From IMG/VR virus record IMGVR_UViG_3300042563_002362: a DNA stretch of 27,899 nt. One strand, 5' to 3'. Positions within the stretch are counted from its first letter, which is position 1; every line of letters begins with the position of its first letter. Positions 1 through 12,530 of the stretch are shown piece after piece. The notes under the pieces are model-generated. The model saw only the letters and a program-made list of their open reading frames with translations, was not told the origin of the DNA and did no database searches. The translations under genes and the position numbers were made by a program. The stretch is from a virus. Lineage: Duplodnaviria; Heunggongvirae; Uroviricota; Caudoviricetes.

Positions 1-35
1 GAAAGCCAAAACTATGTCAACTGAGAAATTTTCAT

Positions 36-122
36 GCGTCAGTAAAGCAAGCGGCTCTTGCAGCGAGACTGTAAATCTCGTCCCTTCATTGGGGAGTGGA
101 TCGACACCACACTGGCGCACCA
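36..122 (+). tRNA. tRNA-Tyr(GTA)
   Basis: Acceptor gcgtcag/ctggcgc, loop CT-GTA-AA, long variable arm, CCA; atypical T-loop ATCGACA. Confidence 0.85.
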
Positions 123-131
123 TTTTCTTAT

Positions 132-211
132 CCTCCAGTAGCTCAGTTGTGGTTAGAGCACCTGCCTTATAAGCGGGAGGTCGTGGGTTCGAGCCCCCAC
201 CTGGCGGACCA
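132..211 (+). tRNA. tRNA-Ile(TAT)
   Basis: Cloverleaf; anticodon arm cctgc CT-TAT-AA gcggg; CCA. Confidence 0.88.
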
Positions 212-260
212 AATAATTTGGTTTCTACATGGTAACTTGCATACCTAATGAAATCATTAG

Positions 261-351
261 GCAGCATAATATGATAGCTCAAATGATAAAGAGCTCTCCT
301 TTGCAATACAGGAGACGATGGATTGGTAATCGGAATCCTCATATATGCTGC
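261..351 (+). ncRNA. tRNA-like RNA with extended (about 13 bp) acceptor stem and non-canonical loops
   Basis: gcagcat/atgctgc plus atatga/tcatat; D arm gctc/gagc; arm tctcct/aggaga; T-like arm ggatt/aatcc; no CCA. Confidence 0.55.
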
Positions 352-366
352 TAACAATTTTCATAA

Positions 367-441
367 CCACCTGTAGCTCAGAGGCAGAGCAATCGGTCGA
401 TAACCGATAGGTCGTGATATCGTAATTCACCAGGTGGACCA
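367..441 (+). tRNA. tRNA-Ile(GAT)
   Basis: ccacctg/caggtgg; atcgg TC-GAT-AA ccgat; CCA; atypical T-loop. Confidence 0.88.
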
Positions 442-450
442 TTTCATAAT

Positions 451-525
451 GCGGGTTTGGTGTAATGGCTAACACGCCTTCCTTCCAAGTAGGAGCCAAG
501 GGTTCGATTCCCTTATCCCGCACCA
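451..525 (+). tRNA. tRNA-Gly(TCC)
   Basis: Cloverleaf, loop CT-TCC-AA, GGTTCGATTCC, CCA; A73. Confidence 0.88.
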
Positions 526-533
526 ATTTAATT

Positions 534-609
534 GGGCGCAAAGCATTGATGGCTGATGCACTCGGCTCTTACCCGAGAGAAGCCGGCTCGAGTCCGGATG
601 CACCCACCA
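534..609 (+). tRNA. tRNA-Lys(CTT)
   Basis: ctcgg CT-CTT-AC ccgag; CCA. Confidence 0.85.
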
Positions 610-620
610 ATTTCAAATAA

Positions 621-719
621 CGTCGCGTGTCCGAGTTTGGTTAAAGGAACTCCGCTTGGAACGGAGTGCGAGCAGCATGGGGCTGTTTGCCGTGGGTTCG
701 AATCCCACCGCGGCGACCA
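621..719 (+). tRNA. Class II-shaped tRNA with TGG (Pro) anticodon
   Basis: cgtcgcg/cgcggcg, A73, actccg CT-TGG-AA cggagt, 9-bp variable arm, canonical T arm, CCA. Confidence 0.8.
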
Positions 720-735
720 ATTTCAAAAATCTAAA

Positions 736-804
736 TCGAGTGCTGAAGAATACGGTTACTTCACTTATAAACGAAAAACCCACCGTGTTCGTTTGTTGCC
801 TCGA
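736..804 (+). ncRNA. Y-RNA-like hairpin RNA, family copy 1
   Basis: tcgag/ctcga, GC[T]GA/TTGC bulged helix, gaatacggt/accgtgttc, loop TTACTTCAC..AAACGAAA..CCC; paralog at 1711. Confidence 0.6.
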
Positions 805-808
805 ATAT

Positions 809-884
809 GCCACGTTAGGAGACCGGTAATCCGCCTGCCTGCAAAGCATGGAGATAGTCTGTTCGATTCAGACACGTGGCTCCA
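809..884 (+). tRNA. tRNA-Cys(GCA)
   Basis: gccacgt/acgtggc, loop CT-GCA-AA, U73, CCA; bulge in anticodon stem. Confidence 0.82.
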
Positions 885-890
885 ATTTTC

Positions 891-1046
891 AAATCTAAAT
901 CGAGTGTTGAATGCAGGCCGACCACTAAAGGTTTGTGTTATTCTGATGAAGTAAAATATCGGATGTCGCTTATTAAAAAAGAACTTTATAAAGATCCTAC
1001 TAAGAATCCGATGTATGGTAGGAAAAAGGTGTTTGATGTAAAGGAA
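891..1046 (+). pseudogene. Relic of a homing-endonuclease NUMOD3-type segment
   Basis: Short open frame reading KGLCYSDEVKYRMSLIKKELYKDPTKNPMYGRKK, no start codon; runs into tRNA-Trp. Confidence 0.45.
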
Positions 1047-1100
1047 GCATAACGGTCTCCAAAACCGTTTGTAGGATATCGTAATTCCTAGCACCTGCCA
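1027..1100 (+). tRNA. tRNA-Trp(CCA)
   Basis: acggt CT-CCA-AA accgt; G73; CCA. Confidence 0.87.
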
Positions 1101-1117
1101 ATTTCAATTTCAAACAT

Positions 1118-1192
1118 GCGCGTGTAGCTCAGAGGCAGAGCAGCTCCTTTACACGGAGAAGGCCGGGGTTTCGATATCCTCCATGCGTACCA
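1118..1192 (+). tRNA. tRNA-Val(TAC)
   Basis: Loop TT-TAC-AC; cloverleaf; CCA. Confidence 0.87.
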
Positions 1193-1201
1193 CTTTCAAA
1201 T

Positions 1202-1275
1202 CGCGGGGTAGAGTAGCGGCAACTCAACGGTCTCATAAGCCGTGCACGTGGGTTCGAATCCCACCCCCGCAACCA
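1202..1275 (+). tRNA. tRNA-fMet(CAT)
   Basis: C1xA72 mismatch (cgcgggg/ccccgca), CAT anticodon; lacks the full 3 GC anticodon-stem pairs. Confidence 0.8.
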
Positions 1276-1285
1276 ATTTCAATAT

Positions 1286-1361
1286 GCACACGTACTTTCA
1301 ATGGCAGATGGTTTGATTGTCAATCAAACGGATGCAGGATCGGTACCTGTCGTGTGCGCCA
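1286..1361 (+). tRNA. tRNA-Asp(GTC), divergent
   Basis: gcacacg/cgtgtgc, gtttga TT-GTC-AA tcaaac, G73, CCA; atypical D and T loops. Confidence 0.7.
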
Positions 1362-1370
1362 CTTTCAAAT

Positions 1371-1447
1371 AGAGCCGTAGCTCAGTTGGTCAGAGCGCTT
1401 GCCTGTCAAGCAAGAGGTCGCGGGTTCAAGCCCCGTCGGTTCTGCCA
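1371..1447 (+). tRNA. tRNA-Asp(GTC)
   Basis: Canonical cloverleaf, CT-GTC-AA, G73, CCA. Confidence 0.93.
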
Positions 1448-1456
1448 CTTTAATAT

Positions 1457-1532
1457 AGACATGAACGCACCACGGTTGGGCGGTCCGGTTGTTACCCGGT
1501 TGAATTTGGTTCGATCCCAAGCATGTCTGCCA
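1457..1532 (+). tRNA. tRNA-Asn(GTT), divergent
   Basis: agacatg/catgtct, loop TT-GTT-AC, G73, CCA. Confidence 0.72.
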
Positions 1533-1540
1533 AGTTTAAT

Positions 1541-1617
1541 GCCGCAGTAACCGAATTGGTATAGGTACTTGCCTTAGAAGCAAGGTTTTGTGGGTTCGAG
1601 TCCCACCTGCGGTACCA
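1541..1617 (+). tRNA. tRNA-Leu(TAG), short variable loop
   Basis: cttgc CT-TAG-AA gcaag; A73; CCA. Confidence 0.88.
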
Positions 1618-1631
1618 ATTTAATTCTTAAC

Positions 1632-1706
1632 CCACCGGTAGCTGAGACGGATTAGCGCTAGCCTGAAGAGCCTGAGAGATTGGATCGTTACCAATCCGGT
1701 GGACCA
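1632..1706 (+). tRNA. tRNA-Phe(GAA), mismatched anticodon stem
   Basis: ccaccgg/ccggtgg, loop CT-GAA-GA, CCA; two mismatches in anticodon stem. Confidence 0.72.
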
Positions 1707-1710
1707 TTTT

Positions 1711-1785
1711 ATCAAGTGCTGAAGAACAGTGTTACTTCACATGAAACGAAACCCAAACCCAACATTGTTCGCCTATTGCCTTGAT
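1711..1785 (+). ncRNA. Y-RNA-like hairpin RNA, family copy 2
   Basis: atcaag/cttgat, GC[T]GA/TTGC, gaacagtgtt/aacattgttc; stems differ from copy 1 but pairing is kept. Confidence 0.6.
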
Positions 1786-1797
1786 ACTTTCTTTAAC

Positions 1798-1874
1798 GGG
1801 ACATTCGACAAGTGGCCTAAGTCAGAACTCTCATAAGGTTCCATCCGTTGGTTCGAATCCAACATGTCCTACCA
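1798..1874 (+). tRNA. tRNA(CAT), elongator Met or Ile2
   Basis: gaact CT-CAT-AA ggttc; paired 1:72; CCA. Confidence 0.85.
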
Positions 1875-1884
1875 ATTTAGACGT

Positions 1885-2008
1885 AATGTTGAACATAGCA
1901 TAGATGATAATGCGCCTCTGATTTGCAGAGGAGAAGGTGCTTAGACCACATGATACATAAGTCCTTCAGAATTTCGGTGATCTGAAGAGAAAGAAAACAC
2001 CGTACATT
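1885..2008 (+). ncRNA. Structured element: degenerate cloverleaf plus H-type pseudoknot
   Basis: cttcaga/tctgaag hairpin whose loop cggtg can pair with downstream caccg; upstream hairpins gcat/atgc and cctctg/cagagg. Confidence 0.4.
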
Positions 2009-2014
2009 TTCAAA

Positions 2015-2100
2015 TCCCAAGTAATTCAATGGTAGAATGCAGCGCTGTTAACGCTGAGGCCCTTATAAGGTTAATGTAGGTTCGACCCCTACCTTGGGAG
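2015..2100 (+). tRNA. tRNA-Asn(GTT) with long variable arm, no encoded CCA
   Basis: tcccaag/cttggga, cagcg CT-GTT-AA cgctg, G73. Confidence 0.82.
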
Positions 2101-2127
2101 CTTTCCCCATGTTAGGATATGAACTAT

Positions 2128-2135
2128 TATAAATA
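2128..2135 (+). promoter_or_regulatory. T4-type late promoter TATAAATA
   Basis: Exact motif 4 nt before the ATG at 2140. Confidence 0.75.
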
Positions 2136-2139
2136 GTTT

Positions 2140-2814
2140 ATGTTCTATACGGTTTACAAGATAACTAATTTAATCAACGAAAAGATTTACATTGGAGTTC
2201 ATAAGACAGATGATCTCAATGATTCATACATGGGTTCTGGTCTCTTAATTAAGCATGCTATTTCAAAATATGGCATTCAAAATTTCGTAAAGGAATACAT
2301 TGCAATTTTTAATAATCCTGAAGAAATGTTTAGTATGGAGTCCGAACTCGTTAATGAGGAGCTGATAAAGTCTGGACATTCTTATAATCTAAAAGAAGGC
2401 GGATCTGGTGGTTGGGATTATGTAAACTCTTCAGAAAAAAACATTTATGGTCTAAATGGAAAGACGCCAGATGCCATTGCTAATTTAGCTAAAGGATTAG
2501 AAACTCAAAGATATCTTAGAAAGAACGATCCTGAGTGGGCTGCACGTGTTCATGAAAACCAGTCTATTGCCGCAGTGAATAGAAATAAAAAGTATGGCAA
2601 TGGTTTCAAAGGTAAGTCACACACAGAGCAAACAAAAGCTAAATTACGAAAGCCACGTCCAGCATCCGCTGGAGATAAAAATTCTCAGTTTGGGACGATG
2701 TGGATAACTAATAAGATTTTGAACAAAAAGATTTTGAAAACCGATCCAATCCCAGATGGTTGGATGAAAGGTATGACTCCGAAACAATTAGTGACGGAAA
2801 ATAAATTTAGATGA
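2140..2814 (+). CDS. GIY-YIG (Seg-like) homing endonuclease with NUMOD3-type C-terminus
   Basis: YTVYKITNLINEKIYIGVHKT...YMGSG; GKSHTEQTKAKL; KNSQFGTMWITN. Confidence 0.9.
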   Translation: MFYTVYKITNLINEKIYIGVHKTDDLNDSYMGSGLLIKHAISKYGIQNFVKEYIAIFNNPEEMFSMESELVNEELIKSGHSYNLKEGGSGGWDYVNSSEKNIYGLNGKTPDAIANLAKGLETQRYLRKNDPEWAARVHENQSIAAVNRNKKYGNGFKGKSHTEQTKAKLRKPRPASAGDKNSQFGTMWITNKILNKKILKTDPIPDGWMKGMTPKQLVTENKFR

Positions 2815-3025
2815 CGGCGTGGAAAGCAGACACGCAGGAACAACGACTGGCCGAAACCCTAGGCGGAGATGCACCAAGATGCGCTAGGTTAGTAATCCGG
2901 TCGTGACCGTAGAGAAGAGCCGTGCATGGCAAGTAAACAGAAAGCAAACCGACTTTGAATCGAGAGGCTTGTCCTGTTGATCGGGGTACCCGATGTCAAA
3001 TCCGAGTAGCGACGGATTCATCTAA
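2807..3025 (+). ncRNA. Large RNA with tRNA-like ends and a structured insert of about 140 nt
   Basis: ttagatga/tcatctaa terminal stem, D-like arm gcgt/acgc, caggaacaa/ttgtcctg stem, 3' hairpins. Confidence 0.5.
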
Positions 3026-3026
3026 T

Positions 3027-3101
3027 TGCTCTGTAGCTCAAAGGAAGAGCGCTTGCCTGACGTGCAAGAGGTTTGGGTATCGTGATCCCACAGAGCAACC
3101 A
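3027..3101 (+). tRNA. tRNA-Val(GAC)
   Basis: cttgc CT-GAC-GT gcaag; CCA. Confidence 0.85.
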
Positions 3102-3109
3102 TTTTTAAT

Positions 3110-3184
3110 GCCGGCATAGCTCAGAGGCAGAGCAGTTACCTTGTAAGTAACAGGTCGAGATTTCGAAATTCTCTGTCGGCTCCA
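3110..3184 (+). tRNA. tRNA-Thr(TGT)
   Basis: gttac CT-TGT-AA gtaac; U73; CCA. Confidence 0.9.
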
Positions 3185-3192
3185 CTTTCAAC

Positions 3193-3248
3193 GCTCCTTA
3201 AGCATAGATGGCGATGCGCTGATTTCGTACATCAGAAAGGACGGCTCG
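3193..3248 (+). pseudogene. 3'-truncated tRNA-Thr(CGT), broken in the T-loop
   Basis: Acceptor 5' strand, D arm, ctgat TT-CGT-AC atcag, gacgg ctcg, then HNH leader; no 3' half found. Confidence 0.75.
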
Positions 3249-3263
3249 TAAGCTCGATATTTG

Positions 3264-3271
3264 TATAAATA
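3264..3271 (+). promoter_or_regulatory. Late promoter TATAAATA
   Basis: Exact motif 5 nt before ATG 3277. Confidence 0.75.
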
Positions 3272-3276
3272 CTTTC

Positions 3277-3900
3277 ATGGATTACAAACGCATCTATGAT
3301 GAGCTTATAGCATTTAGAAAGGTTAACATTCCTTCAGGATATGTTGAGCGACATCATATAATCATGACCTCACTAGGAGGCAGTGATGATGCTGATAATT
3401 TAGTTAAGCTAACTGGCCGCGAGCATTGGATTGCTCATCTTTTACTTCACCAGATCTATCAACGATCTGAAACCGCATATGCTTGTCATATGATGGCAAT
3501 GCGATGTGAAGAGCGTGAAATACCATGTATCAAAAGTTCGCGGGTCTATGAAAAGATACGAAAGGAATGTGCTAAATTAACCTCAAAGACAATGAAATTT
3601 CATCAAGCTGGTGAAAGAAATTCGCAATTTGGAACCCGCTACATATGTAATCTTGATCTTAAACAAAATAAAAAGATTAAGAAGACAGACAATATTCCTG
3701 AAGGATGGATTGCCGGTCGTAATAGATGGAATATTGAGTCCAAAGTATCTAAGCCTAAGTATGTACATACTGAAGAGCATAAACGTAACATATCTGTTTC
3801 TAATAAAGGGAAACCAAAAACGGAAGAATGGAGAACACAGATTTCAAACATTCAACGTGGTAAGATTCGAGGACCTTACAAAAAAGCTAACGTCGCATAG
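3277..3900 (+). CDS. HNH homing endonuclease (MobE-like), copy 1
   Basis: ERHHII..SLGGSDD..NLVKLTGREHWIAHLLL; C-terminal NSQFGT and HTEEHKRNIS modules. Confidence 0.9.
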   Translation: MDYKRIYDELIAFRKVNIPSGYVERHHIIMTSLGGSDDADNLVKLTGREHWIAHLLLHQIYQRSETAYACHMMAMRCEEREIPCIKSSRVYEKIRKECAKLTSKTMKFHQAGERNSQFGTRYICNLDLKQNKKIKKTDNIPEGWIAGRNRWNIESKVSKPKYVHTEEHKRNISVSNKGKPKTEEWRTQISNIQRGKIRGPYKKANVA

Positions 3901-3964
3901 CTGGCCAATTGCACATGTTTCGTAATCATGTTTTTCGTGAGTTCAAATCTCACCGTTAGCTCCA
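3886..3964 (+). tRNA. tRNA-Thr(CGT), overlapping the HNH stop codon
   Basis: gctaacg/cgttagc, loop TT-CGT-AA, U73, CCA. Confidence 0.85.
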
Positions 3965-3971
3965 CTTTTAT

Positions 3972-4049
3972 CGGGTATTAGCGTAGCCTGGCTAGCGCGC
4001 CTCATTTGGATTGAGGAGGTCGTAGGTTCGAATCCTACATACCCGACCA
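3972..4049 (+). tRNA. tRNA-Pro(TGG)
   Basis: C1:G72, cctca TT-TGG-AT tgagg, CCA. Confidence 0.9.
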
Positions 4050-4053
4050 CTTT

Positions 4054-4139
4054 ACAGTAAGTCGAAGGCGGATTACTCCACCCAGCCAATTTAGTTGGGA
4101 CTGTATGAATACATTGAATAAACACTCCCTTCTTACTGT
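4054..4139 (+). ncRNA. Y-RNA-like candidate with GTCGAAG motif
   Basis: acagtaag/cttactgt terminal stem, bulged GTCGAAGG, internal hairpin cccagc/gttggg. Confidence 0.5.
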
Positions 4140-4144
4140 TTTAT

Positions 4145-4235
4145 GGAGCGGGCCCAGGCTGGCCGATGGAACATACCTGGAAAGTATGTGGACCCTACAA
4201 AGGTCTCAGGAGTTCGAATCTCCTCTGCTCCGCCA
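4145..4235 (+). tRNA. tRNA-Ser(GGA)
   Basis: Loop CT-GGA-AA, long variable arm, G73, CCA. Confidence 0.88.
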
Positions 4236-4242
4236 CTTTAAT

Positions 4243-4316
4243 TGAGGATTAGCATAATGGTAATGCTCGCGACTTTGACTCGCGCTATAAGAGTTCGATT
4301 CTCTTATCCTCTGCCA
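4243..4316 (+). tRNA. tRNA-Gln(TTG)
   Basis: cgcga CT-TTG-AC tcgcg; U1 mismatch; G73; CCA. Confidence 0.9.
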
Positions 4317-4317
4317 A

Positions 4318-4425
4318 CTTTAATAGTGTAATGGCAGCACGCCTTGATAGGGTTGTTGAGGTTCGATTCCTCTTGAATATGGTAACGTAAATCCGCACAG
4401 GGAAGAGCGGTTCGATTCCGATTTC
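4318..4425 (+). ncRNA. Aberrant tRNA-like element with one D arm and two T arms
   Basis: gtgt-aatggca-gcac D arm; gagg TTCGATT cctc; cgg TTCGATT ccg. Confidence 0.4.
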
Positions 4426-4427
4426 TT

Positions 4428-4526
4428 TGGGTATGATGTAGTGATAGCATGACACCTTCCAGGTTGAGAGGCACTTGCTTCTCTTTATGATAAAGTCAGC
4501 GTACGTTTGATTCGTGCTGCCCAACA
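4428..4526 (+). pseudogene. tRNA-Gly(TCC)-like with insertion of about 30 nt in the 3' anticodon stem
   Basis: tgggta/tgccca, loop CT-TCC-AG, inserted agagg/ttctct hairpin, T arm gtacg TTTGATT cgtgc; ends ACA. Confidence 0.5.
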
Positions 4527-4559
4527 ATTTTCACAATGACTGTTACATGTCGATACGTA

Positions 4560-4703
4560 GGGCATGGACGACCGACGGGGATGCTGGTAGGTGTGCGTCG
4601 GCCTTAACTCGCGCGTTACGTGAGGTAAAGGGGACCAGCATAATATGTCAAAACTGAAACTGCCGAGGGCACGGCTGTAAAACGGTGAAACTCCGATGTT
4701 CCA
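4560..4703 (+). ncRNA. Structured RNA with T-arm-like 3' end and CCA
   Basis: atgctggt/accagcat stem, alternative ccgacg/cgtcgg pairing, cgg-tgaaact-ccg, ends TCCA then the usual AATTT spacer. Confidence 0.45.
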
Positions 4704-4709
4704 ATTTTC

Positions 4710-4873
4710 ACAATGTGTTGGCCGTGATGATGTAATTTACGAGGCCACAAGAATAGATGACTGCGAGTGCGAATGACGAAGTAAGTCTTTTAGACCGAAA
4801 CAAAACAATATCTCGACAAGACCGGATACTTGAACAAATTTCTACTATTCAAACTTCATCGTAAACACATTGT
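4710..4873 (+). ncRNA. Orphan structured RNA
   Basis: 10-bp terminal stem acaatgtgtt/aacacattgt enclosing several hairpins. Confidence 0.45.
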
Positions 4874-4876
4874 TTT

Positions 4877-4919
4877 GCTCGTAGGTGATTCTATGATTCG
4901 TTCATTGTTGCCTACGAGT
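4877..4919 (+). ncRNA. Hairpin element
   Basis: ctcgtagg/cctacgag; 3' TTGTTGCC as in the copy at 736. Confidence 0.35.
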
Positions 4920-5040
4920 TCTAAAATTTACCTAAACGGGCTCATGAAGCGTAGGGACGGGCTCTTCCAACAGCGTGATGGCTGAAGTCTTCGGACGAAG
5001 AGTATGTATATCTTGCAATAAGCGCTTTAATACTTTCAAA

Positions 5041-5115
5041 CGGGGTGAAGCTTTAATGGTGAAGCAGCAGGCTTTTAACTTGCAGAACTGGGATCGTTAC
5101 CCAGCGCCCTGACCA
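5041..5115 (+). tRNA. tRNA-Lys(TTT)
   Basis: gcagg CT-TTT-AA cttgc; T-loop ATCGTTA; CCA. Confidence 0.85.
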
Positions 5116-5134
5116 CTTTCAATATAATTAAACC

Positions 5135-5347
5135 ATGAAGCCAATACTTGCTACAAGTCAATTCTGCGGTCCTTGCAAACTGCTTAAAGACCGCCTTGAT
5201 CCGAACTCTTATGAGGTTCGAGACATGGAAAAAGACCGTGATTTTTTCATCGAAAACGGCATCCGTGCTGTTCCTATGCTCATCATAGGAACCGTGAAAA
5301 TCACAGGAATGGACAAAATCATCGCATATTTCGACGAAAACCCATAA
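5135..5347 (+). CDS. Glutaredoxin/NrdH-like thioredoxin-fold protein
   Basis: CGPC motif, GIRAVPMLII cis-Pro segment, 70 aa. Confidence 0.8.
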   Translation: MKPILATSQFCGPCKLLKDRLDPNSYEVRDMEKDRDFFIENGIRAVPMLIIGTVKITGMDKIIAYFDENP

Positions 5348-5399
5348 CCCATTGGTTTTCAACGGAATGAAAAAAAGTGAAAAAAAGTGAATTTTTTTG

Positions 5400-5428
5400 T
5401 TTACATTTGACCAAATTTGGTTTATAAT
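5400..5428 (+). promoter_or_regulatory. Sigma70-type early promoter TTTACA-N17-TATAAT with upstream A/T tracts
   Basis: Exact motif; the same motif recurs six more times in the window. Confidence 0.8.
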
Positions 5429-5503
5429 AATTCTGTAAGGCAACCCTCGAAGATTCCGACAGACAACTGACAACAGTTCCTGAAAAAATCCAAAAGAAAA
5501 CCC

Positions 5504-5532
5504 TTTACAAGCTGACAGAAACCTGTTAGTAT
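5504..5532 (+). promoter_or_regulatory. Second tandem promoter TTTACA-N17-TAGTAT
   Basis: Same -35 and spacing as 5400. Confidence 0.5.
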
Positions 5533-5603
5533 TAAACATAATCAATTCGGTGGTTCGTTCCGCTAAGTTGGTTACCTTCAGAAAAGAGTTTCTGATTGTA
5601 TCC

Positions 5604-5614
5604 GTTCTTTGACA
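5604..5614 (+). promoter_or_regulatory. boxA-like antitermination element GTTCTTTGACA
   Basis: Resembles rrn-leader boxA (E. coli TGCTCTTTAACA); lies between tandem promoters and the RNA array. Confidence 0.5.
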
Positions 5615-5802
5615 TTTTCTAACTTTGAAAGGAGCACTTCGGTCCCTTTCACCATACAAGACTACAATGCAAATTGTGTCTGATTAGTACGGCCCGGGAC
5701 GGGTTGGGAACATCAGTATGTCAACCGATAAATTTTCATGGTGCCGCCTCGCGAAGTCGGTGGTTAAATGTACGAAGAGAGCAGCCATTATTTTTTTGAG
5801 TC

Positions 5803-5923
5803 GAGTTTAGAACGCGAAGAGGTCAAGTGTGCAACGGTAAAATCTAGAGAGTAACCCTGCATGCGAGCGTAACCTTCCCTACATCGCATAGGGCGCAACA
5901 GGTGCGATTCCTGTAGACTCTCA
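5803..5923 (+). ncRNA. tRNA-like ends with large internal domain
   Basis: gagttta/tagactc; T arm acagg TGCGATT cctgt. Confidence 0.5.
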
Positions 5924-5932
5924 ATTTTCAAT

Positions 5933-6043
5933 AAGAAGGTGGAAACAAAAAGCTGGCGACGGTCAGTGAACAAAGCCAAGCGGTATGGCATCGGACTAAT
6001 TACTCCGATTTCTTCAAGGGTTCAAATCCCTTTCTTCTTTCCA
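5933..6043 (+). ncRNA. tRNA-like RNA with about 35-nt insertion before the D arm and an 8-nt anticodon loop
   Basis: aagaagg/tcttctt, gcc-aagcggtat-ggc, atcgga/tccgat, aaggg TTCAAAT ccctt, CCA. Confidence 0.55.
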
Positions 6044-6052
6044 ATTTCAAAT

Positions 6053-6129
6053 GGGGCGCACAATCCAAAGTGCCTACGTTGTAACTCAACGCAGAGGGCA
6101 AGCCGATTGGGTGTCGGGCCGCTCCACCA
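6053..6129 (+). ncRNA. tRNA-like RNA with Ala acceptor identity and no canonical anticodon loop
   Basis: GGGGCG/CGCTCC gives G3.U70; A73; CCA; 5-nt loop cgttg-taact-caacg. Confidence 0.55.
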
Positions 6130-6139
6130 ATTTACAACC

Positions 6140-6215
6140 GGGCTCGGTATGAATGGCGATGTTCTCAGTGGGATTAAGTTCCCGCCTTCGGGTTGCTGAG
6201 GTTGTATGCCTGCCA
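6140..6215 (+). ncRNA. Small structured RNA ending in CCA
   Basis: ctcag/ctgag stem with two hairpins, one with a UUCG loop; ends TGCCA. Confidence 0.35.
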
Positions 6216-6230
6216 AAGTTCATACACAAT

Positions 6231-6305
6231 GCTGCTATCGTCTATCGGTTAGGACAAATGGTTTTCAACCATTAGAGCGGGGTTCAACTCCCCGTAGCAG
6301 TACCA
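6231..6305 (+). tRNA. tRNA-Glu(TTC)
   Basis: aatgg TT-TTC-AA ccatt; CCA. Confidence 0.9.
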
Positions 6306-6313
6306 ATTTTCAA

Positions 6314-6506
6314 CTGAATCGGAGATTAGAGGTAAGTTGAGTAACAACGCCCCGCTAGGTTAATAGGCAAACCGGCATGCTTCTGTAAGTGCTCGAGCTA
6401 AAGGAAGCCATGTGTGTACAGCATGAAAACGCAGTTCTGGGTTCGATCCCCAGGCGGGGCTGCTCTAATAAACAACGAGGCGTCATTCCACGCCTACAAG
6501 ATTCGG
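6314..6506 (+). ncRNA. tRNA-like domain embedded in a long closing stem
   Basis: Core gccccgc/gcggggc with D arm ggtt/aacc and T arm ctggg TTCGATC cccag; outer attagag/ctctaat and ctgaatc/gattcgg. Confidence 0.6.
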
Positions 6507-6516
6507 AAATTTTCAA

Positions 6517-6591
6517 CAGGATGTGGCTTGACTGGGAAGCGCTTAGTTTGGGGCTAAGAATATGAAGGTTCGAATCCTTTCATCCTGACCA
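6517..6591 (+). tRNA. tRNA-Pro(TGG)
   Basis: caggatg/catcctg; cttag TT-TGG-GG ctaag; CCA. Confidence 0.88.
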
Positions 6592-6598
6592 ATTTCAT

Positions 6599-6683
6599 GG
6601 GCTGGTGTGGCCGAGCTGAGCTGGCGATCATCATGATAGTTCGAAAGAACCTTAAGGAAGTTTGAATCTTCCACTGTCCACCA
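6599..6683 (+). ncRNA. Degenerate class II tRNA-like gene, anticodon undetermined
   Basis: D arm gcc/ggc, variable arm gttc-gaaa-gaac, T arm ggaag TTTGAAT cttcc, CCA. Confidence 0.5.
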
Positions 6684-6694
6684 ATTTTTCATAT

Positions 6695-6780
6695 GGGTAG
6701 GTATACCGTTAAGGAGACGGTTCGGACTGTAAATCCGACGCTTTCGAGCTCGCTGGGATCGTTCCCCAGACTGCCCACCA
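6695..6780 (+). tRNA. tRNA-Tyr(GTA)
   Basis: tcgga CT-GTA-AA tccga; variable arm; CCA. Confidence 0.88.
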
Positions 6781-6873
6781 TTTTATAAATTCGTTCACGT
6801 GGTGGTGACGACTACAGGAGCCTAGGTCCCTACAGCAATGCTAATGCATGCAACCTTTAATTTTCAAAACAAT

Positions 6874-6958
6874 GCGTGTGTGGGCCAATGGTCGGTCATC
6901 TGACTCTTAATCAGCGGAAGAAATTCCTATGCAGGTTCGAATCCTGTCGCACGTACCA
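6874..6958 (+). tRNA. tRNA-Lys(CTT) with long variable arm
   Basis: ctga CT-CTT-AA tcag; extra gga/tcc arm; CCA. Confidence 0.85.
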
Positions 6959-6966
6959 ATTTCAAT

Positions 6967-7041
6967 GGGCTGTTAGTATAACGGATAATACGCTGCGCTA
7001 CGAACGCAGAGATCCAGGTTCGATTCCTGGGCGGCCTACCA
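6967..7041 (+). tRNA. tRNA-Arg(ACG)
   Basis: ctgcg CT-ACG-AA cgcag; CCA. Confidence 0.92.
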
Positions 7042-7051
7042 ATTTCAATAT

Positions 7052-7128
7052 CCGAGAGTAGCTTTAATTGGTAAAAGCCCTCCCTGTGAAGGAGCACAAT
7101 GTGGGTTCGAGTCCCACCTCGCGGACCA
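7052..7128 (+). tRNA. tRNA-His(GTG) with A73 and no genomic G-1
   Basis: ctcc CT-GTG-AA ggag; 3' end ctcgcgg-A-CCA; base -1 is T. Confidence 0.85.
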
Positions 7129-7166
7129 ATTTAGCTGACATATACGTCATGACGGTATGTTGGCAA

Positions 7167-7239
7167 TTTACACCAGTGAAGCGGGCAGAGATGCCAGCGA
7201 AGTATTCGTCACCAGTGAAAGTCGGTTTAACGGTGTAGA
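7167..7239 (+). ncRNA. Mini-cloverleaf structured element
   Basis: tttacacc/ggtgtaga enclosing three short hairpins. Confidence 0.35.
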
Positions 7240-7277
7240 TCATTTTCTCGATGTGGTTTGCAGACTGCATCGGACAA

Positions 7278-7407
7278 GTAAGCGAACATAAGAACGCATG
7301 ATGCTGCAACTGATTGCAAGTAAGGTGAGGTAATCGTCTAATAGAAGGACACCAGCTAGAAAAGCTGGGAACATTGGTGCAAATCCAATTTACTTTTTGT
7401 CGCTTAC
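7278..7407 (+). ncRNA. tRNA-like domain (7327-7396) inside a long closing stem
   Basis: gtaagcga/tcgcttac; core gaggtaa/ttacttt, ccagc-tagaaaa-gctgg, attgg TGCAAAT ccaat. Confidence 0.5.
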
Positions 7408-7420
7408 AAGTTTTTCAAAT

Positions 7421-7502
7421 GGGGCGCGGTAAAGCGTAAGGCAGGGTTTTTGTAATTGATTCATTTCAAGCCCGGGAGGTTAGATTCCTCTGCGCTCCAC
7501 CA
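7421..7502 (+). ncRNA. tRNA-like RNA with Ala acceptor identity and 18-nt anticodon loop
   Basis: ggggcgc/gcgctcc (G3.U70), A73, CCA; gggttt/aagccc stem; gagg TTAGATT cctc. Confidence 0.6.
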
Positions 7503-7514
7503 ATTTTTCTTTAT

Positions 7515-7590
7515 GGGCTCGCATGTTCCTCGGGGGCGAGAAGCACTTGCAATGCATCTGTGGCCGGTTCGATTCCGGTCGGGTCCACCA
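7515..7590 (+). tRNA. tRNA-Ala(TGC)
   Basis: G3.U70, loop CT-TGC-AA, A73, CCA. Confidence 0.82.
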
Positions 7591-7600
7591 ATTTTCAAAT

Positions 7601-7690
7601 GTGGTTCATCGGAAGCAGTCTTTAGGTGGGCTGAGGTGACTGTCGGTAAAACTGTTAAACACCCTATGCCAGTCCCTCCCGATGAACTAC
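7601..7690 (+). ncRNA. Orphan long-stem RNA
   Basis: 12-bp gtggttcatcgg/ccgatgaactac stem with inner helices. Confidence 0.45.
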
Positions 7691-7697
7691 GCCTTTT

Positions 7698-7803
7698 GGG
7701 TATAGCAGCGGTGCGGAAGAAGGTTCGATTCCTTCATGATTCATTGAATCAACATGGTGTTGCGGCGACGGCCACCTTGGGTTCAACTCCCAATATATCC
7801 ACC
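7698..7803 (+). ncRNA. tRNA-like RNA with two T arms
   Basis: gggtata/tatatcc; gaagg TTCGATT ccttc and ttggg TTCAACT cccaa. Confidence 0.5.
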
Positions 7804-7817
7804 TTTTCTTAGTTAAT

Positions 7818-7892
7818 GCTGGCATCGTCTAATGGTCAGGACATCTGGTTTTCAACCAGCAGATCGGAGTTCAATTCTCCGTGCCAGTACCA
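7818..7892 (+). tRNA. tRNA-Glu(TTC)
   Basis: ctgg TT-TTC-AA ccag; CCA. Confidence 0.9.
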
Positions 7893-7897
7893 ATTTA

Positions 7898-7975
7898 GAG
7901 CGGCTCTTGTGTCTAGGAAGAGTCTCCAAAGAGTCAAGGATATGACTTGCTGCCGTTAACTCGGAACGGATTCCA
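7898..7975 (+). ncRNA. Multi-hairpin element ending TCCA
   Basis: gctctt/aagagt, agtca/tgact, ccgtt/aacgg; shares CTCTTGTGTCTA with the 9525 element. Confidence 0.35.
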
Positions 7976-7982
7976 ATTTTAT

Positions 7983-8073
7983 GGAGGTATGACAGAGCGG
8001 TAACTGTGTCTGTTTGCTAAACAGAAGCCACCCTTGATCGGGTGCGTCGGTTCGATCCCGGCTACCTCCGCCA
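7983..8073 (+). tRNA. tRNA-Ser(GCT)
   Basis: tctgt TT-GCT-AA acaga; variable arm; G73; CCA. Confidence 0.9.
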
Positions 8074-8081
8074 ATTTCAAT

Positions 8082-8158
8082 CGCGGGTTCGACAGGAGGT
8101 GGTTCCTGCCGGGTTTCATAAGCCTAGTACGTCGGTTCGAGTCCGACACCCGCAACCA
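8082..8158 (+). tRNA. tRNA-fMet(CAT), second copy
   Basis: C1xA72; loop TT-CAT-AA; CCA. Confidence 0.78.
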
Positions 8159-8170
8159 ATTTTCTAACAT

Positions 8171-8226
8171 GGCCCGTTCGTTTAATGGATAGGACTGCTC
8201 CCTTCTAAGGAGACAATAGAGGTTCG
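8171..8226 (+). pseudogene. 3'-truncated tRNA-Arg(TCT), broken in the T-loop
   Basis: D loop with A20, ctcc CT-TCT-AA ggag, agagg ttcg, then HNH leader. Confidence 0.75.
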
Positions 8227-8241
8227 TAAGTTCGGTATTTG

Positions 8242-8249
8242 TATAAATA
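8242..8249 (+). promoter_or_regulatory. Late promoter TATAAATA
   Basis: Exact motif 5 nt before ATG 8255, inside palindrome gtattt-gtat-aaatac. Confidence 0.75.
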
Positions 8250-8254
8250 CTTTC

Positions 8255-8938
8255 ATGGATTACAAACGTATCTATGATGAACTTATTGCTTTTAGACAAG
8301 CTAACATTCCGTCCGGTTATGTTGAGCGTCATCATATTATCATGCGTTCTCTCGGTGGTTTGGATGATTCTATAAATCTTGTCGCATTAACTGGACGAGA
8401 GCATTGGATTGCTCATTTACTTCTTCATAAGATATATCGACGTTCTGAAACTGCTCATGCATGTAATATGATGGCAATGCGGTGTGAAGAACGCGGCATT
8501 GGATACATTAAGAATTCTAGAATGTATGAAAAGATTCGTAAGGAATGTGCGAAGCTAACTTCGATTAGAAATTCAGCTTCTCAATCTGGAGAACGCAATT
8601 CCCAACACGGTACACGTTGGATATGCAATATTGACCTTAAAGAAAACAAGAAGATTCTAAAGACTGATGCGATACCCGAAGGATGGATTGCTGGACGCGA
8701 TCATTGGAATCGTTTTATTGAAAAACAATGTTTGAAGTGTAAAACGATTTTCTTTGGTAAGCGCCTTGTCAAATATTGTTCTTCGGCATGCAGATCTCGT
8801 AAGTTAACGGACGAAGAAAAACATCATTTATCCAGGCAAGCTTTGCTATCAGGAAGAAATTCCGGTAAAAACAATGGCATGCATAAATCAAAACTTTCTC
8901 GATTGGCCTCGGTATCGGAACGTGCTTCTAACGCGTAG
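8255..8938 (+). CDS. HNH homing endonuclease (MobE-like), copy 2, with extra Cys-rich module
   Basis: N-terminal part highly similar to 3277 ORF; CLKC...YCSSAC. Confidence 0.9.
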   Translation: MDYKRIYDELIAFRQANIPSGYVERHHIIMRSLGGLDDSINLVALTGREHWIAHLLLHKIYRRSETAHACNMMAMRCEERGIGYIKNSRMYEKIRKECAKLTSIRNSASQSGERNSQHGTRWICNIDLKENKKILKTDAIPEGWIAGRDHWNRFIEKQCLKCKTIFFGKRLVKYCSSACRSRKLTDEEKHHLSRQALLSGRNSGKNNGMHKSKLSRLASVSERASNA

Positions 8939-8983
8939 AACCGTAATGGAACGATGTAGGTTCGATTCCTACTCGAGGCGCCA
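8906..8983 (+). pseudogene. tRNA-Arg(TCT)-like lacking a D arm, overlapping the HNH C-terminus
   Basis: gcctcgg/tcgaggc, 7-nt connector, acgtg CT-TCT-AA cgcgt, long variable region, canonical T arm, CCA. Confidence 0.6.
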
Positions 8984-9023
8984 CTTTCTGTAATAAGAGA
9001 CCTGATCAGAACTAATTTTCAAT

Positions 9024-9101
9024 GGCCGTGTAGCCCAATCGGCAGTAGGCAACAGACTTAAAATCTGTAAAGTGTGGGTTCGAGTCCCACCACGGCTACC
9101 A
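9024..9101 (+). tRNA. tRNA-Leu(TAA), short variable loop
   Basis: acaga CT-TAA-AA tctgt; CCA. Confidence 0.9.
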
Positions 9102-9108
9102 ATTTAAT

Positions 9109-9184
9109 TGGGGTGAGGCTTAATGGTATCAGCTCCCGACTCATAATCGGTGGATAGCGGGTTCGATTCCCGTCGCCCCTACCA
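9109..9184 (+). tRNA. tRNA(CAT), Met or Ile2
   Basis: ccga CT-CAT-AA tcgg; CCA. Confidence 0.82.
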
Positions 9185-9193
9185 AACATCTTA

Positions 9194-9294
9194 GCAGTAG
9201 AGAGGGAAAAGCAACCATGATGGTTGCCGGCGTCCCTCAGAGGGAGTCGTGTTCCTCTTAGTGTAAATGTCAAGACACGAACAAAGCACACTGC
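9194..9294 (+). ncRNA. Orphan multi-hairpin RNA
   Basis: gcagt/actgc; gcaacc/ggttgc; tcgtgt/acacga. Confidence 0.4.
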
Positions 9295-9305
9295 AAAATT
9301 TCAAA

Positions 9306-9338
9306 TCCTGAGTAGCTCAGTGGTAGTAGCGGGAGCCA
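9306..9338 (+). pseudogene. tRNA 5' fragment (acceptor and D arm only) ending GCCA
   Basis: tcctgag tagctcagtggtagtagc ggga gcca. Confidence 0.45.
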
Positions 9339-9347
9339 ATTTTTAAT

Positions 9348-9424
9348 TGTGGGAAGCTAATTGCAGCGATAGACGATTTCTGATCGGACGTCTATGAGAG
9401 GTTTAAGTCCCTGTCTCACAGCCC
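9348..9424 (+). ncRNA. Degenerate tRNA-like RNA with 13-nt anticodon loop
   Basis: tgtggga/tctcaca; atagacg/cgtctat; gg TTTAAGT cc. Confidence 0.45.
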
Positions 9425-9432
9425 TTTCTTAT

Positions 9433-9519
9433 GCCGCAGTCGCATAGTGGTCGATTGCACCGGTTTTGTAAACCGGATTGGAAACAACTCCGTCGGTTCG
9501 AATCCGACCTGCGGCTCCA
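9433..9519 (+). tRNA. tRNA-Thr(TGT) with long variable arm
   Basis: ccggt TT-TGT-AA accgg; ttg-gaaa-caa arm; U73; CCA. Confidence 0.88.
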
Positions 9520-9524
9520 AACTT

Positions 9525-9613
9525 TATGAAGCGACACTCTTGTGTCTAACGGCGGACGTTCAGTTAGTCCGATGATGGCCATCCTGTTGCAAGCAAACTA
9601 TATGTGCTTCATA
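9525..9613 (+). ncRNA. Orphan multi-hairpin RNA
   Basis: tatgaagc/gcttcata enclosing gacac/gtgtc, ggac/gtcc, gatg/catc. Confidence 0.45.
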
Positions 9614-9631
9614 ATTCTTTTCGTGGTGATA

Positions 9632-9764
9632 TATGACAGTTCCTTCTATTGTTACAGATGAGGTGGAGGTTCGAATCCTTCTGCTGCTGCAAAGTGCATA
9701 CCTAAACCGAATGCATTTCGTAGCGGTATAGCTTAATGGTTAGAGCGCGAAAAATACTGTCGTA
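9632..9764 (+). ncRNA. yrlA: YrlA-type Y RNA (circularly permuted tRNA mimic)
   Basis: Order: closing stem tatgacagt, T arm ggagg TTCGAAT ccttc, acceptor-like gctgctgc/gtagcggt capped by a hairpin, D arm gct-taatggtta-gagc, GCGAAAA, closing strand actgtcgta; Ro60 gene in the window. Confidence 0.78.
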
Positions 9765-9781
9765 GCCAGTTCCCGAAACAT

Positions 9782-9857
9782 GCATCTGTAGCTCAGTGGT
9801 TAGAGCACCTCCTTGATAAGGTGGGGGTCGTTGGTTCAAGTCCAACCAGGTGTACCA
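9782..9857 (+). tRNA. tRNA-Ile(GAT)
   Basis: Loop TT-GAT-AA; CCA. Confidence 0.88.
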
Positions 9858-9868
9858 ATTTTCAATAT

Positions 9869-9943
9869 CGGCGCTAAGCTTTAATGGTGAAGCATCAGGT
9901 TTTTACCCTGAGGAACTCGGATCGTTACCGAGAGCGCTGACCA
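9869..9943 (+). tRNA. tRNA-Lys(TTT)
   Basis: tcagg TT-TTT-AC cctga; CCA. Confidence 0.85.
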
Positions 9944-9950
9944 CTTTAAT

Positions 9951-10025
9951 GCTTGTGTAGCTCAACGGTAGAGCACGGAATTCTAACCTCCTGTGGTATG
10001 GGTTCAAATCCCATCATAAGCACCA
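9951..10025 (+). tRNA. Putative amber-suppressor tRNA (CTA)
   Basis: gcttgtg ta gctc aacggta gagc a cggaa TT-CTA-AC ctcct gtggt atggg TTCAAAT cccat cataagc a cca; canonical numbering puts CTA at 34-36. Confidence 0.68.
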
Positions 10026-10033
10026 CTCTCAAA

Positions 10034-10041
10034 GATAAATA
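10034..10041 (+). promoter_or_regulatory. Late-promoter-like GATAAATA
   Basis: One mismatch to TATAAATA, 5 nt before ATG 10047. Confidence 0.55.
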
Positions 10042-10046
10042 CAAAT

Positions 10047-10667: not shown

Positions 10668-10702
10668 AGCCCTCGTGGGTTCGAACCCCACGGCTTCCGC
10701 CA
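10614..10702 (+). tRNA. tRNA-Ser(TGA)
   Basis: ctgt CT-TGA-AA acag; variable arm; G73; CCA. Confidence 0.9.
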
Positions 10703-10707
10703 ATTTT

Positions 10708-10796
10708 GGGTGTTGCTGAGGTTGGCTCCTCAAACGATTTCGAAAATCGTAGTGACCCTATGAAGGTCAGCGGTTCGATGCCGCCCTCACCCGCCA
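10708..10796 (+). tRNA. tRNA-Ser(CGA)
   Basis: acgat TT-CGA-AA atcgt; variable arm; G73; CCA; imperfect acceptor stem. Confidence 0.8.
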
Positions 10797-10956: not shown

Positions 10957-10964
10957 GGCGCTGT

Positions 10965-11297: not shown

Positions 11298-11309
11298 TTG
11301 AAAACACAC

Positions 11310-12455: not shown

Positions 12456-12530
12456 GCGGGTATGGTCTAATGGCTATGACGCGACCTTGCCAAGGTTGAG
12501 ATGAGGTTTCAATTACCTCTACCCGTACCA
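12456..12530 (+). tRNA. tRNA-Gly(GCC)
   Basis: cgacc TT-GCC-AA ggttg; A73; CCA. Confidence 0.88.

Follow-up and report, generated by a model that had tools for sequence, protein, structure and literature searches.

A 27,899-nt stretch of viral DNA (hereafter the window; Caudoviricetes, IMG/VR record IMGVR_UViG_3300042563_002362) contains, within an array of tRNA genes, two units that are each very probably a homing-endonuclease cassette, lodged inside a tRNA gene and bringing a replacement of the same anticodon for the gene that it broke. The window is part of a 60.5-kb IMG/VR viral contig (labeled G000), with an estimated completeness of 28%. In both units, a 5' fragment of a tRNA gene (the stump) is followed by a short leader, a gene for an HNH endonuclease, and a further tRNA gene (the spare). 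The two units, termed W1 and W2 below, consist of the following features, in window coordinates:

3193..3248, + strand: 5' stump of tRNA-Thr(CGT), positions 1 to ~57 of the tRNA, 56 nt, ending in the T-loop at CTCG (fourth T-loop base)
3249..3276, + strand: leader, first copy, TAA-GCTCG-A-TATTTG-TATAAATA (late-promoter-like, 3264-3271)-CTTTC, with the ATG following at 3277
3277..3900, + strand: open reading frame (ORF) HNH-1, 207 amino acids, a Mob-like HNH homing endonuclease of PHROG 655
3886..3964, + strand: complete replacement tRNA-Thr(CGT), called by ARAGORN and scoring 48.8 bits with the Rfam tRNA model
8171..8226, + strand: 5' stump of tRNA-Arg(TCT), 56 nt, ending in GGTTCG (T-loop TTCG)
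8227..8254, + strand: leader, second copy, TAA-GTTCG-G-TATTTG-TATAAATA-CTTTC
8255..8938, + strand: ORF HNH-2, 227 amino acids, a Mob-like HNH homing endonuclease of PHROG 655
8906..8983, + strand: replacement tRNA-Arg(TCT) of a rewired class, whose first 33 nt encode the end of HNH-2

An earlier note on this DNA, made from its letters alone, had described this order of stump, leader, HNH gene and complete tRNA at 3193-3964, and an equivalent one for Arg(TCT) at 8171-8983. Both are read directly in the sequence, with the Thr spare also called by ARAGORN and both spares matched by the Rfam tRNA model, and the leader pattern is shared. The Thr stump comprises the acceptor strand, D arm, anticodon arm (loop TTCGTAC), variable loop, T-stem strand GACGG and the terminal CTCG, and yields a Thr-CGT call by ARAGORN once it is completed artificially. 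The first 15 nt of the spare tRNA-Thr(CGT) encode the last part of HNH-1 and overlap its stop codon. That the downstream genes are divergent complete tRNAs, as the same note had it, holds for the Thr spare, which is 62% identical to its stump; the Arg spare is instead non-canonical and structurally rewired.

A tRNA gene followed in this way by an ORF might be taken for an interrupted gene (with an intron, split or permuted) whose two parts come together only as RNA. The 5' pieces are well formed up to the T-loop, and the tRNA-Thr(GGT) gene of the window (12621-12741) does have a short insert in its anticodon loop. However, a search of the 60.5-kb contig found no 3' half able to pair with the acceptor and T-stem of either stump, and Rfam gave no intron or ribozyme match in either cassette, where a group I intron would show a ribozyme and both exons. 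The downstream tRNAs have acceptor stems of their own, unlike those of the stumps, and relatives with an empty site carry the gene uninterrupted. Joining at the RNA level is therefore extremely improbable, and the conclusion of the earlier note that these are not introns, since the original 3' halves are absent, stands.

Empty sites and recurrence among relatives

Two sister contigs from IMG/VR, G001 and G002, possess the same array order as the window, and neither has an HNH gene at the two cassette sites. In G001, an uninterrupted tRNA-Thr(CGT) (L054:2194-2269) is 100% identical to window positions 3193-3247, and continues past 3247 into the T-loop, T-stem and acceptor strands that are absent from the window stump. 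In G002, an intact Thr homologue (anticodon TGT) is followed by tRNA-Pro, a spacer and Ser(GGA), as in the window. An intact tRNA-Arg(TCT) lies between the same neighbours in G001 (L060:1768-1843) and in G002 (L021:2168-2242), to which the Arg stump is 80% and 71% identical, respectively. The comparison with insert-free relatives that the earlier note had proposed thus yields intact tRNAs, and no HNH gene, at the same array positions.

For both cassettes, the window ceases to resemble the sister contigs at the fourth T-loop base, and resembles them again from the 3' end of the downstream tRNA. These sharp borders imply that the inserted or replacing segment consists of exactly the leader, the HNH gene and the new tRNA; the cassette extends from T-loop position 57/58 of the resident tRNA to the 3' end of the carried one. 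This is the presence/absence polymorphism at a single locus, with sharp borders, that is expected of a homing element. The Thr stump matches the intact G001 gene at 55 of 56 positions, against 62% identity to the spare of its own cassette, and in W1 the resident orthologue is therefore the stump, not the downstream tRNA. The arrays are mosaic between the sister contigs.

Contigs from four lake metagenomes (2016-2024) match the cassette-bearing form without differences, and end at the repeated leader (3261-3287 and 8239-8265). None of them joins across a cassette-free form at either site, which does not imply that this form is absent, since contigs drop rare variants. A blastn search of the region against cultured phages returned generic tRNA matches only.

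An exact scan of IMG/VR for a 33-nt portion of the leader gave 0 matches, and relatives were found via the protein instead, with protein-guided scans gathering 42 and then 80 loci. In ~28 distinct relatives (at least ~40% identity), the stop codon of the HNH ORF lies inside, or a few bases from, a tRNA gene; among them are two from culture, Vibrio phage VB_VaC_SRILMA and Rhizobium phage LG08. A stump broken in the T-loop and a downstream tRNA of the same anticodon were identified in 15 distinct cassettes (W1, W2, L005, L009, L010, L012, L013, L015, L021, L022, L072, L073, L074, L101 and L119), of which L009 is held by G001 and L021 by G002. They span 10 anticodons: Thr-CGT, Thr-TGT, Arg-TCT, Arg-ACG, Gly-GCC, Gly-TCC, Val-TAC, Trp-CCA, Tyr-GTA and Ser-GCT. 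By my own estimate, 15 matches in 16 pairs would arise with a chance of ~1e-20 if anticodons were independent draws from ~30. Stump anticodons were obtained by artificial 3' completion followed by ARAGORN, a noisy procedure in which 23 of 79 coding controls gave some call; calls were kept only where numerous registers agreed (27 to ~200, and at least 60 in most cases), and then checked by eye. In three more loci, the break is instead at or near the anticodon loop (L086, L088 and L065, the latter from VB_VaC_SRILMA). Besides the two window cassettes, the layout recurs in at least 15 distinct ones. VB_VaC_SRILMA has the full layout of stump, HNH gene and spare, as a Thr-TGT cassette at 71601-72290 of PP083314, while phage LG08 has the overlap of HNH gene and tRNA with no recognisable stump.

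The anticodon arm and variable loop of the L021 stump are present in >120 viral contigs, and all 80 of the 80 copies that were fetched lie in a tRNA-like context with no HNH leader behind. The stumps are pieces of ordinary tRNAs.

The tRNA-linked enzymes group together in a tree of the nuclease module, where one clade with support 99/95 has 16 of its 17 rows linked to a tRNA. HNH homologues without paired tRNAs, a context that the earlier note had named as speaking against its idea, do exist, as 34 more distant Mob-like rows of the same tree with no tRNA nearby, while the tRNA-linked enzymes cluster. HNH-1 and HNH-2 are sisters (support 100/94), and targets switch between close relatives. The earlier proposal of a mobile cassette that replaces the tRNA gene it breaks is thus supported by the empty sites, by the contrast between 55/56 and 62% identity, and by this recurrence.

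In some relatives, the overlap between the protein and tRNA genes is far more extensive. The Gly(TCC) spare lies mostly inside the 3' end of the HNH ORF, by 54 nt in L004:3001-3750 and by ~70 nt in L073:174-941 and L074:1501-2268, where the same DNA encodes protein and tRNA.

The leader, the HNH proteins and the proposed route of invasion

The window contains a 42-nt leader pattern at exactly two sites, while 100 shuffles give an expectation of 0. The two 28-nt leaders are identical at 26 of 28 positions, compared to 70% identity in the ORF and 53% at third codon positions, and the leader is under constraint. Across relatives, the junction reads: T-stem strand, TTCG, (A/T)AA, GTTCR, 4-6 bases, TATAAATA, 5 bases and ATG, with no Shine-Dalgarno sequence in the cassette leaders.

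The earlier note had observed that a 5-nt repeat follows the sequence of each target tRNA, and suggested that it arose on insertion. The repeat is present in both window cassettes, but the correspondence does not extend to relatives with variant T-loops: the second pentamer fails to follow them in L010, L012, L015, L022, L072 and L074 (6 of 7 informative cases), and only W1 mirrors its unusual T-loop C in the leader pentamer. Relatives keep the second pentamer as a conserved part of the leader, of consensus AAGTTCR; it does not flank the insert, and an origin on insertion is not upheld. A target-site duplication was likewise considered and rejected, since both copies lie on one side of the insert, with 3 nt between them.

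The conservation at this border bears on whether the stump is a scar, or rather a selected working part, such as a left homology arm, an RNA insulator or processing signal, or a decoy site. Stumps are nearly full length up to the T-loop although the enzymes are at 40-65% identity, the adjacent leader is far better conserved than third codon positions, and the variant T-loop base of the window's Thr stump recurs in its leader. On the other hand, stumps are reduced or absent, with the ORF intact, in L023, L077, L066, L083-L085, L089 and L125, and a role as homology arm is already part of the cassette explanation. A stump devoid of the 3' acceptor strand is also unable to fold as a tRNA for RNase P, which further counts against a working part. 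I consider this reading quite improbable.

The motif NATAAATA is followed by an ATG after 4-6 bases, without a Shine-Dalgarno sequence, in 13 of its 20 occurrences in the contig (e.g. 3264-3279, 8242-8257 and 10034-10049), and the motifs with a 5-base spacer open long ORFs. With T4 late promoters, such a spacing would place the transcript start at the ATG or immediately beside it. The phage may thus express its late genes from leaderless or near-leaderless mRNAs, made late.

HNH-1 and HNH-2 are 76% identical over residues 1-165, and unrelated beyond. Both match PHROG 655 'homing endonuclease' (E 7.6e-39 and 9.3e-34, respectively), and cultured T4-like phage relatives carry the annotation Mob-like or MobE. 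In Pfam, HNH-1 matches NUMOD3 with 20.9 bits (cut-off 20.4), and HNH_5 weakly, at 16.2 bits, below the cut-off. The HH..N..H..H residues (H26, H27, N41, H50 and H54) are invariant across 12 relatives. CxxC...CxxC motifs are present in HNH-2 and most relatives, and the C-terminal part of HNH-2 is zinc-finger-like; the proteins thus combine an HNH motif with a modular DNA-binding region (NUMOD3, zinc finger). Structural comparisons aimed at the beta-beta-alpha-metal fold gave no significant match. The AlphaFold model has a pLDDT of 76.7, exceeding 90 over residues 1-70, and matches to McrA and Cas8-HNH in PDB sequence profiles (E 0.03-0.05) are at motif level only. HNH-containing rows from Foldseek against the PDB are weak (E 0.1 or worse, none significant), and a wide VIA-align search gave helical noise with no significant match (Z ≤5.6). 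From sequence, the two enzymes appear to be a shared nuclease and linker module joined to different, predicted DNA-binding C-terminal parts.

The same tRNA array also encodes an endonuclease of another family:

2140..2814, + strand: GIY-YIG (Seg-like) homing endonuclease gene, PHROG 314 (E 8e-44), with a weak match to Pfam SegE_GIY-YIG

Its product is 48% identical to HNH-1 residues 101-150, over a 50-residue NUMOD3/IPEGW linker module. This common linker suggests module exchange between endonuclease families.

Two tRNA genes of the window correspond to cassette sites of the sister contigs:

9433..9519, + strand: tRNA-Thr(TGT) of cassette type, without endonuclease gene, 92% identical to the spare behind the L021 HNH gene (G002)
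12456..12530, + strand: tRNA-Gly(GCC), without endonuclease gene, 73% identical to the L009 spare (G001), against 64% to the L009 stump

The former occupies exactly the place where L021 has its stump and HNH gene, and at the same site of G001 the last ~31 HNH codons remain, fused to a cassette-type Thr(TGT). The window's Thr(TGT) is probably a relic of a lost cassette. The Gly(GCC) gene starts exactly where the stump of L009 begins. Both sites can be read as later stages, in which the endonuclease gene would have decayed or been lost, leaving the imported allele.

One further unit resembles the cassettes in layout. At 12747-13185, a 21-nt 5' piece of tRNA-Leu(GAG) is followed by AATAAATA-N6-ATG, an ORF (12794-13093) and a complete tRNA-Leu(GAG). 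The ORF is late, and has 99 codons for a coiled-coil-like, non-HNH protein; the downstream Leu(GAG) is the orthologue of the G001 gene. In addition, the anticodon loop of the tRNA-Thr(GGT) at 12621-12741 is extended by a 47-nt insert with GATAAATA and the start of a short ORF. The gene is uninterrupted in G001, and in contigs of three lake metagenomes 12652 is joined directly to 12700; the insert is therefore polymorphic.

Several observations weigh against the homing-cassette explanation. L004 pairs a Phe(GAA) stump with a Gly(TCC) spare, and 7 or 8 tRNA-linked relatives have no recognisable stump. The Gly-GCC and Thr-TGT sites require a precise loss of stump and endonuclease gene, or else the opposite polarity there. 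The Leu(GAG) unit, built around a non-HNH ORF, indicates that the layout is not strictly dependent on an HNH gene in cis. Finally, the Arg stump and spare share AGGTTCG around the presumed cut, and, judging by intact relatives, probably the rest of the T-loop as well; any immunity of the spare must therefore stem from sequence further upstream.

In an alternative explanation, the endonuclease is mere cargo. Cassettes of a late gene and a tRNA would enter arrays by homology-guided or copy-choice recombination via tRNA genes, with one crossover in the homologous tRNA, explaining the matching anticodon, and the other illegitimate and favoured at the conserved T-loop. The Leu(GAG) unit fits this, its downstream tRNA being the G001 orthologue, as do the mosaicism of the arrays and the variable break points, which lie in the D-loop for Leu and in the anticodon loop for L065, L086 and L088. 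It does not readily account for 15 HNH cassettes with 10 anticodons that share one junction, at T-loop base 4-6, and a conserved leader, nor for a layout bound to a single HNH clade, nor for W1, where it is the stump that is the resident orthologue. Moreover, a GIY-YIG enzyme aimed at exactly this T-loop segment is known (PMC2330249), and the movement of defunct elements in trans by a neighbouring endonuclease, as described in PMC2790892, could explain the non-HNH case. Passive carriage is in my view unlikely, though the least unlikely of the rival explanations.

The homing-cassette explanation draws together what the comparisons above establish, namely presence or absence at syntenic sites, the high identity of the stump to an intact relative and its low identity to the spare, recurrence in which the anticodons match, a shared junction and relics of decay. 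The events would be as follows. The enzyme would be produced late, from a transcript starting at or next to the ATG. In a mixed infection, its variable C-terminal part would recognise the intact tRNA-X gene of a cassette-free relative, and I infer that the conserved HNH module would then cut this DNA in or near the T-loop segment. The break would be repaired from the cassette-bearing genome, with the 5' stump, identical to the target, and the sequence beyond the tRNA 3' end serving as homology arms, so that the leader, HNH gene and spare tRNA take the place of the 3' third of the target. Thereafter, the stump would be without a site, and the spare presumably too different (~62% identity, with altered spacing or architecture) for recognition. 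The invaded genome would thereby be immune, with its decoding capacity kept. The endonuclease gene could later decay or be deleted, while the spare allele stays.

The rewired tRNA-Arg(TCT) and the surrounding array

ARAGORN gives no call at 8906-8983, and the Rfam tRNA model aligns with 34.3 bits, in an alignment that drops the D arm and accommodates 16 additional bases ahead of the T arm. Only 7 nt separate the acceptor and anticodon arms, too few for a canonical D arm. The gene nonetheless has a 7-bp acceptor stem, an anticodon arm with U33 and a purine at position 37, a T arm with TTCGANT, and a discriminator base and CCA. A decayed, D-armless pseudogene was considered and rejected, because the 3 nt after TAT covary as pairs with the 3 nt after AGAAA.

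When the gene is set beside those carried as spares by L012 and L119, and beside other copies, a common plan emerges. The 5' part consists of a 7-bp acceptor strand, TAT, a 3-base strand (H5'), 1 base and the anticodon arm; the 3' part of (A/T)GAAA, a 3-base strand pairing with H5' (H3'), a 13-14-nt strand of the form TAA..GG...ATG, the T arm and the acceptor strand. The TAA..GG...ATG strand resembles a D-loop plus variable loop, and the D-stem strands enclose the anticodon arm. The H5'/H3' combinations include CGG/CCG, GCC/GGC, ACC/GGT, CTC/GAG and CCC/GGG. In a gap-free MAFFT alignment of 8 copies, H is paired in 93% of cells, against 68% in shuffles and 39-51% with slid partners. A covariance model of the class (R1), built without the window copy, recovers that copy with 51.3 bits (E 3.6e-12). 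In an alignment of 12 copies fitted to the model, helix H has 100% of its positions paired, each of the 3 pairs showing double-sided changes, and covariation is seen in all four helices of the class. The base after GG is A in 7 of 7 Arg copies, and T in 5 of 5 copies with a TAT anticodon. A20 is an identity base for ArgRS, and the A after GG in the Arg copies fits this.

Copies of the class were located as follows:

L012:3732-3808, L119:2185-2261, L013:6173-6249, and L147, L148, L161, L166 and L196: further rewired copies (Arg-TCT, Arg-ACG or TAT)
MF155946 ~94857-94933, MF403007 ~112818-112893 and PQ492658 ~44884-44959: rewired tRNA in cultured phages

The cultured carriers are Streptomyces phage Mildred21 and >40 relatives, Microbacterium phage Zooman, Agrobacterium phage Atu_ph04, Stenotrophomonas phage SOVA965 and Limnohabitans phage DC31. 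ARAGORN misses the class, which is unannotated in >50 cultured-phage records. On this covariation, the Arg spare belongs to a rewired class of tRNA, and is not defective.

In Limnohabitans phage DC31 (PQ492658; L269 909-1270), an HNH ORF of an unrelated family (HHLDP...CANCH) stops 2 nt upstream of a rewired tRNA-Arg(TCT). An endonuclease is thus paired with a rewired tRNA a second time, independently, in a cultured freshwater phage. The rewired tRNA is accordingly found behind HNH-2, behind the L012 and L119 genes, and behind the unrelated HNH gene of DC31; the class also occurs away from endonuclease genes.

The rewired strand order retains all tRNA helices and the conserved loop bases, and places the anticodon arm ~20 bp from the T-loop in the DNA. 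One may speculate that this shift lets the spare escape an enzyme that binds upstream of the cut site. More broadly, homing-endonuclease pressure might remodel tRNA architecture, with an immune spare that keeps its function as RNA while altering its likeness to the target as DNA; this remains a tentative idea, which I regard as possible but rather doubtful. Should the rewired RNAs prove to be aminoacylated and to decode, they would be functional tRNAs whose core topology has no known cellular counterpart.

The surrounding array, of ~42 tRNA genes and a transfer-messenger RNA (tmRNA) gene, fills positions 1-13,200 of the window. It includes the following:

9951-10025: tRNA with anticodon CTA (amber-reading)
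12108-12444: phage tmRNA, 117 bits with Rfam

A 110-nt stretch of the array (7689-7800) is left out by contigs in all four metagenome runs, revealing an indel polymorphism. Beyond the array, the ORF at 16700-17884 matches PHROG 1211 (E 6.3e-51), whose library name is '2-aminooxy adenylosuccinate synthetase'. It is read here as PurZ-like, and the phage DNA may have 2-aminoadenine in place of adenine. If so, this would affect which substrates the endonucleases of the phage can cut.

Comparison with known systems

Homing endonucleases are generally held to reach essential genes only under cover of self-splicing introns or inteins, and otherwise to occupy intergenic positions where they do no harm. 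The cassettes would represent a third route, for short RNA genes, in which the gene is broken and a working, presumably immune substitute is supplied. No description was found in the literature of endonuclease cassettes that break tRNA genes and bring a same-anticodon spare, nor of the rewired tRNA. If the explanation is correct, endonucleases directly drive tRNA allele turnover, duplication, pseudogenes and structural oddity in phage arrays, which bears on why phage tRNAs differ from those of their hosts. The finding also matters for annotation, as stumps and rewired tRNAs get missed or miscalled. The family would also amount to a set of natural nucleases in which a single cutting module is combined with interchangeable, predicted DNA-binding parts for different tRNA genes; this one genome appears to hold two sister enzymes directed at different tRNAs. 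Cultured carriers of the cassette layout, and of the rewired tRNA, make both ideas open to bench work.

A tRNA gene is also the target in the integration of prophages and islands, where an integrase acts on the gene, and the element carries tRNA sequence that restores it, leaving a partial duplicate. That route employs a site-specific recombinase and an attP with only the 3' part of the tRNA, and is reversible. The cassettes differ in that there is no recombinase, the 5' part is left over, and a full, divergent tRNA is supplied.

T4 SegB, encoded in the T4 tRNA cluster, resembles the cassettes in setting. It recognises a site that takes in the conserved T-loop segment GGTTCRANTCC of a tRNA gene, and drives the preferred inheritance of the tRNA region in mixed infection (PMC2330249). 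In both cases, an endonuclease gene of a phage is housed in a tRNA array. However, SegB is a GIY-YIG enzyme whose gene lies between intact tRNA genes, breaking none and carrying no replacement, while the cassettes encode an HNH enzyme, sit inside the target gene, leave a 5' stump, and bring a full tRNA of the same anticodon whose 5' end is the end of the ORF.

In the enzyme itself, the likeness is to the T4 Mob/MobE family (PHROG 655; PMC2790892, PMC2988022), which shares the N-terminal HNH, the NUMOD3-type linker, the variable C-terminus and the late-promoter context. Known Mob genes lie between or beside protein genes, e.g. the nrd genes, and the tRNA-linked clade is a distinct branch with its own insertion logic. 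Both window cassettes replace the 3' third of a tRNA gene, in contrast to the intergenic location of Seg and Mob genes, which disrupts no gene.

A parallel in design is found in the mORFs of fungal mitochondria, which create gene hybrids in Allomyces atp6 and in Glomus atp6, atp9, cox2 and nad3 (PMC3630166). There, the native remnant is 91-98% identical to the element-free relative, against 64-81% for the carried copy, and this pattern of native against imported identity was used to demonstrate endonuclease-mediated gene replacement (PMC3630166). The same arrangement of a native remnant beside the insert is seen here, with 98% identity to the element-free relative and 62% to the carried copy. 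This is a resemblance of design only, with no sequence relationship to the LAGLIDADG or GIY-YIG ORFs. The mORFs affect organelle protein genes, encode LAGLIDADG or GIY-YIG enzymes, and replace a C-terminus in frame, with the remnant downstream; the cassettes, in contrast, act on an RNA gene of a phage, encode an HNH enzyme, carry a whole new gene, and leave the 5' remnant upstream.

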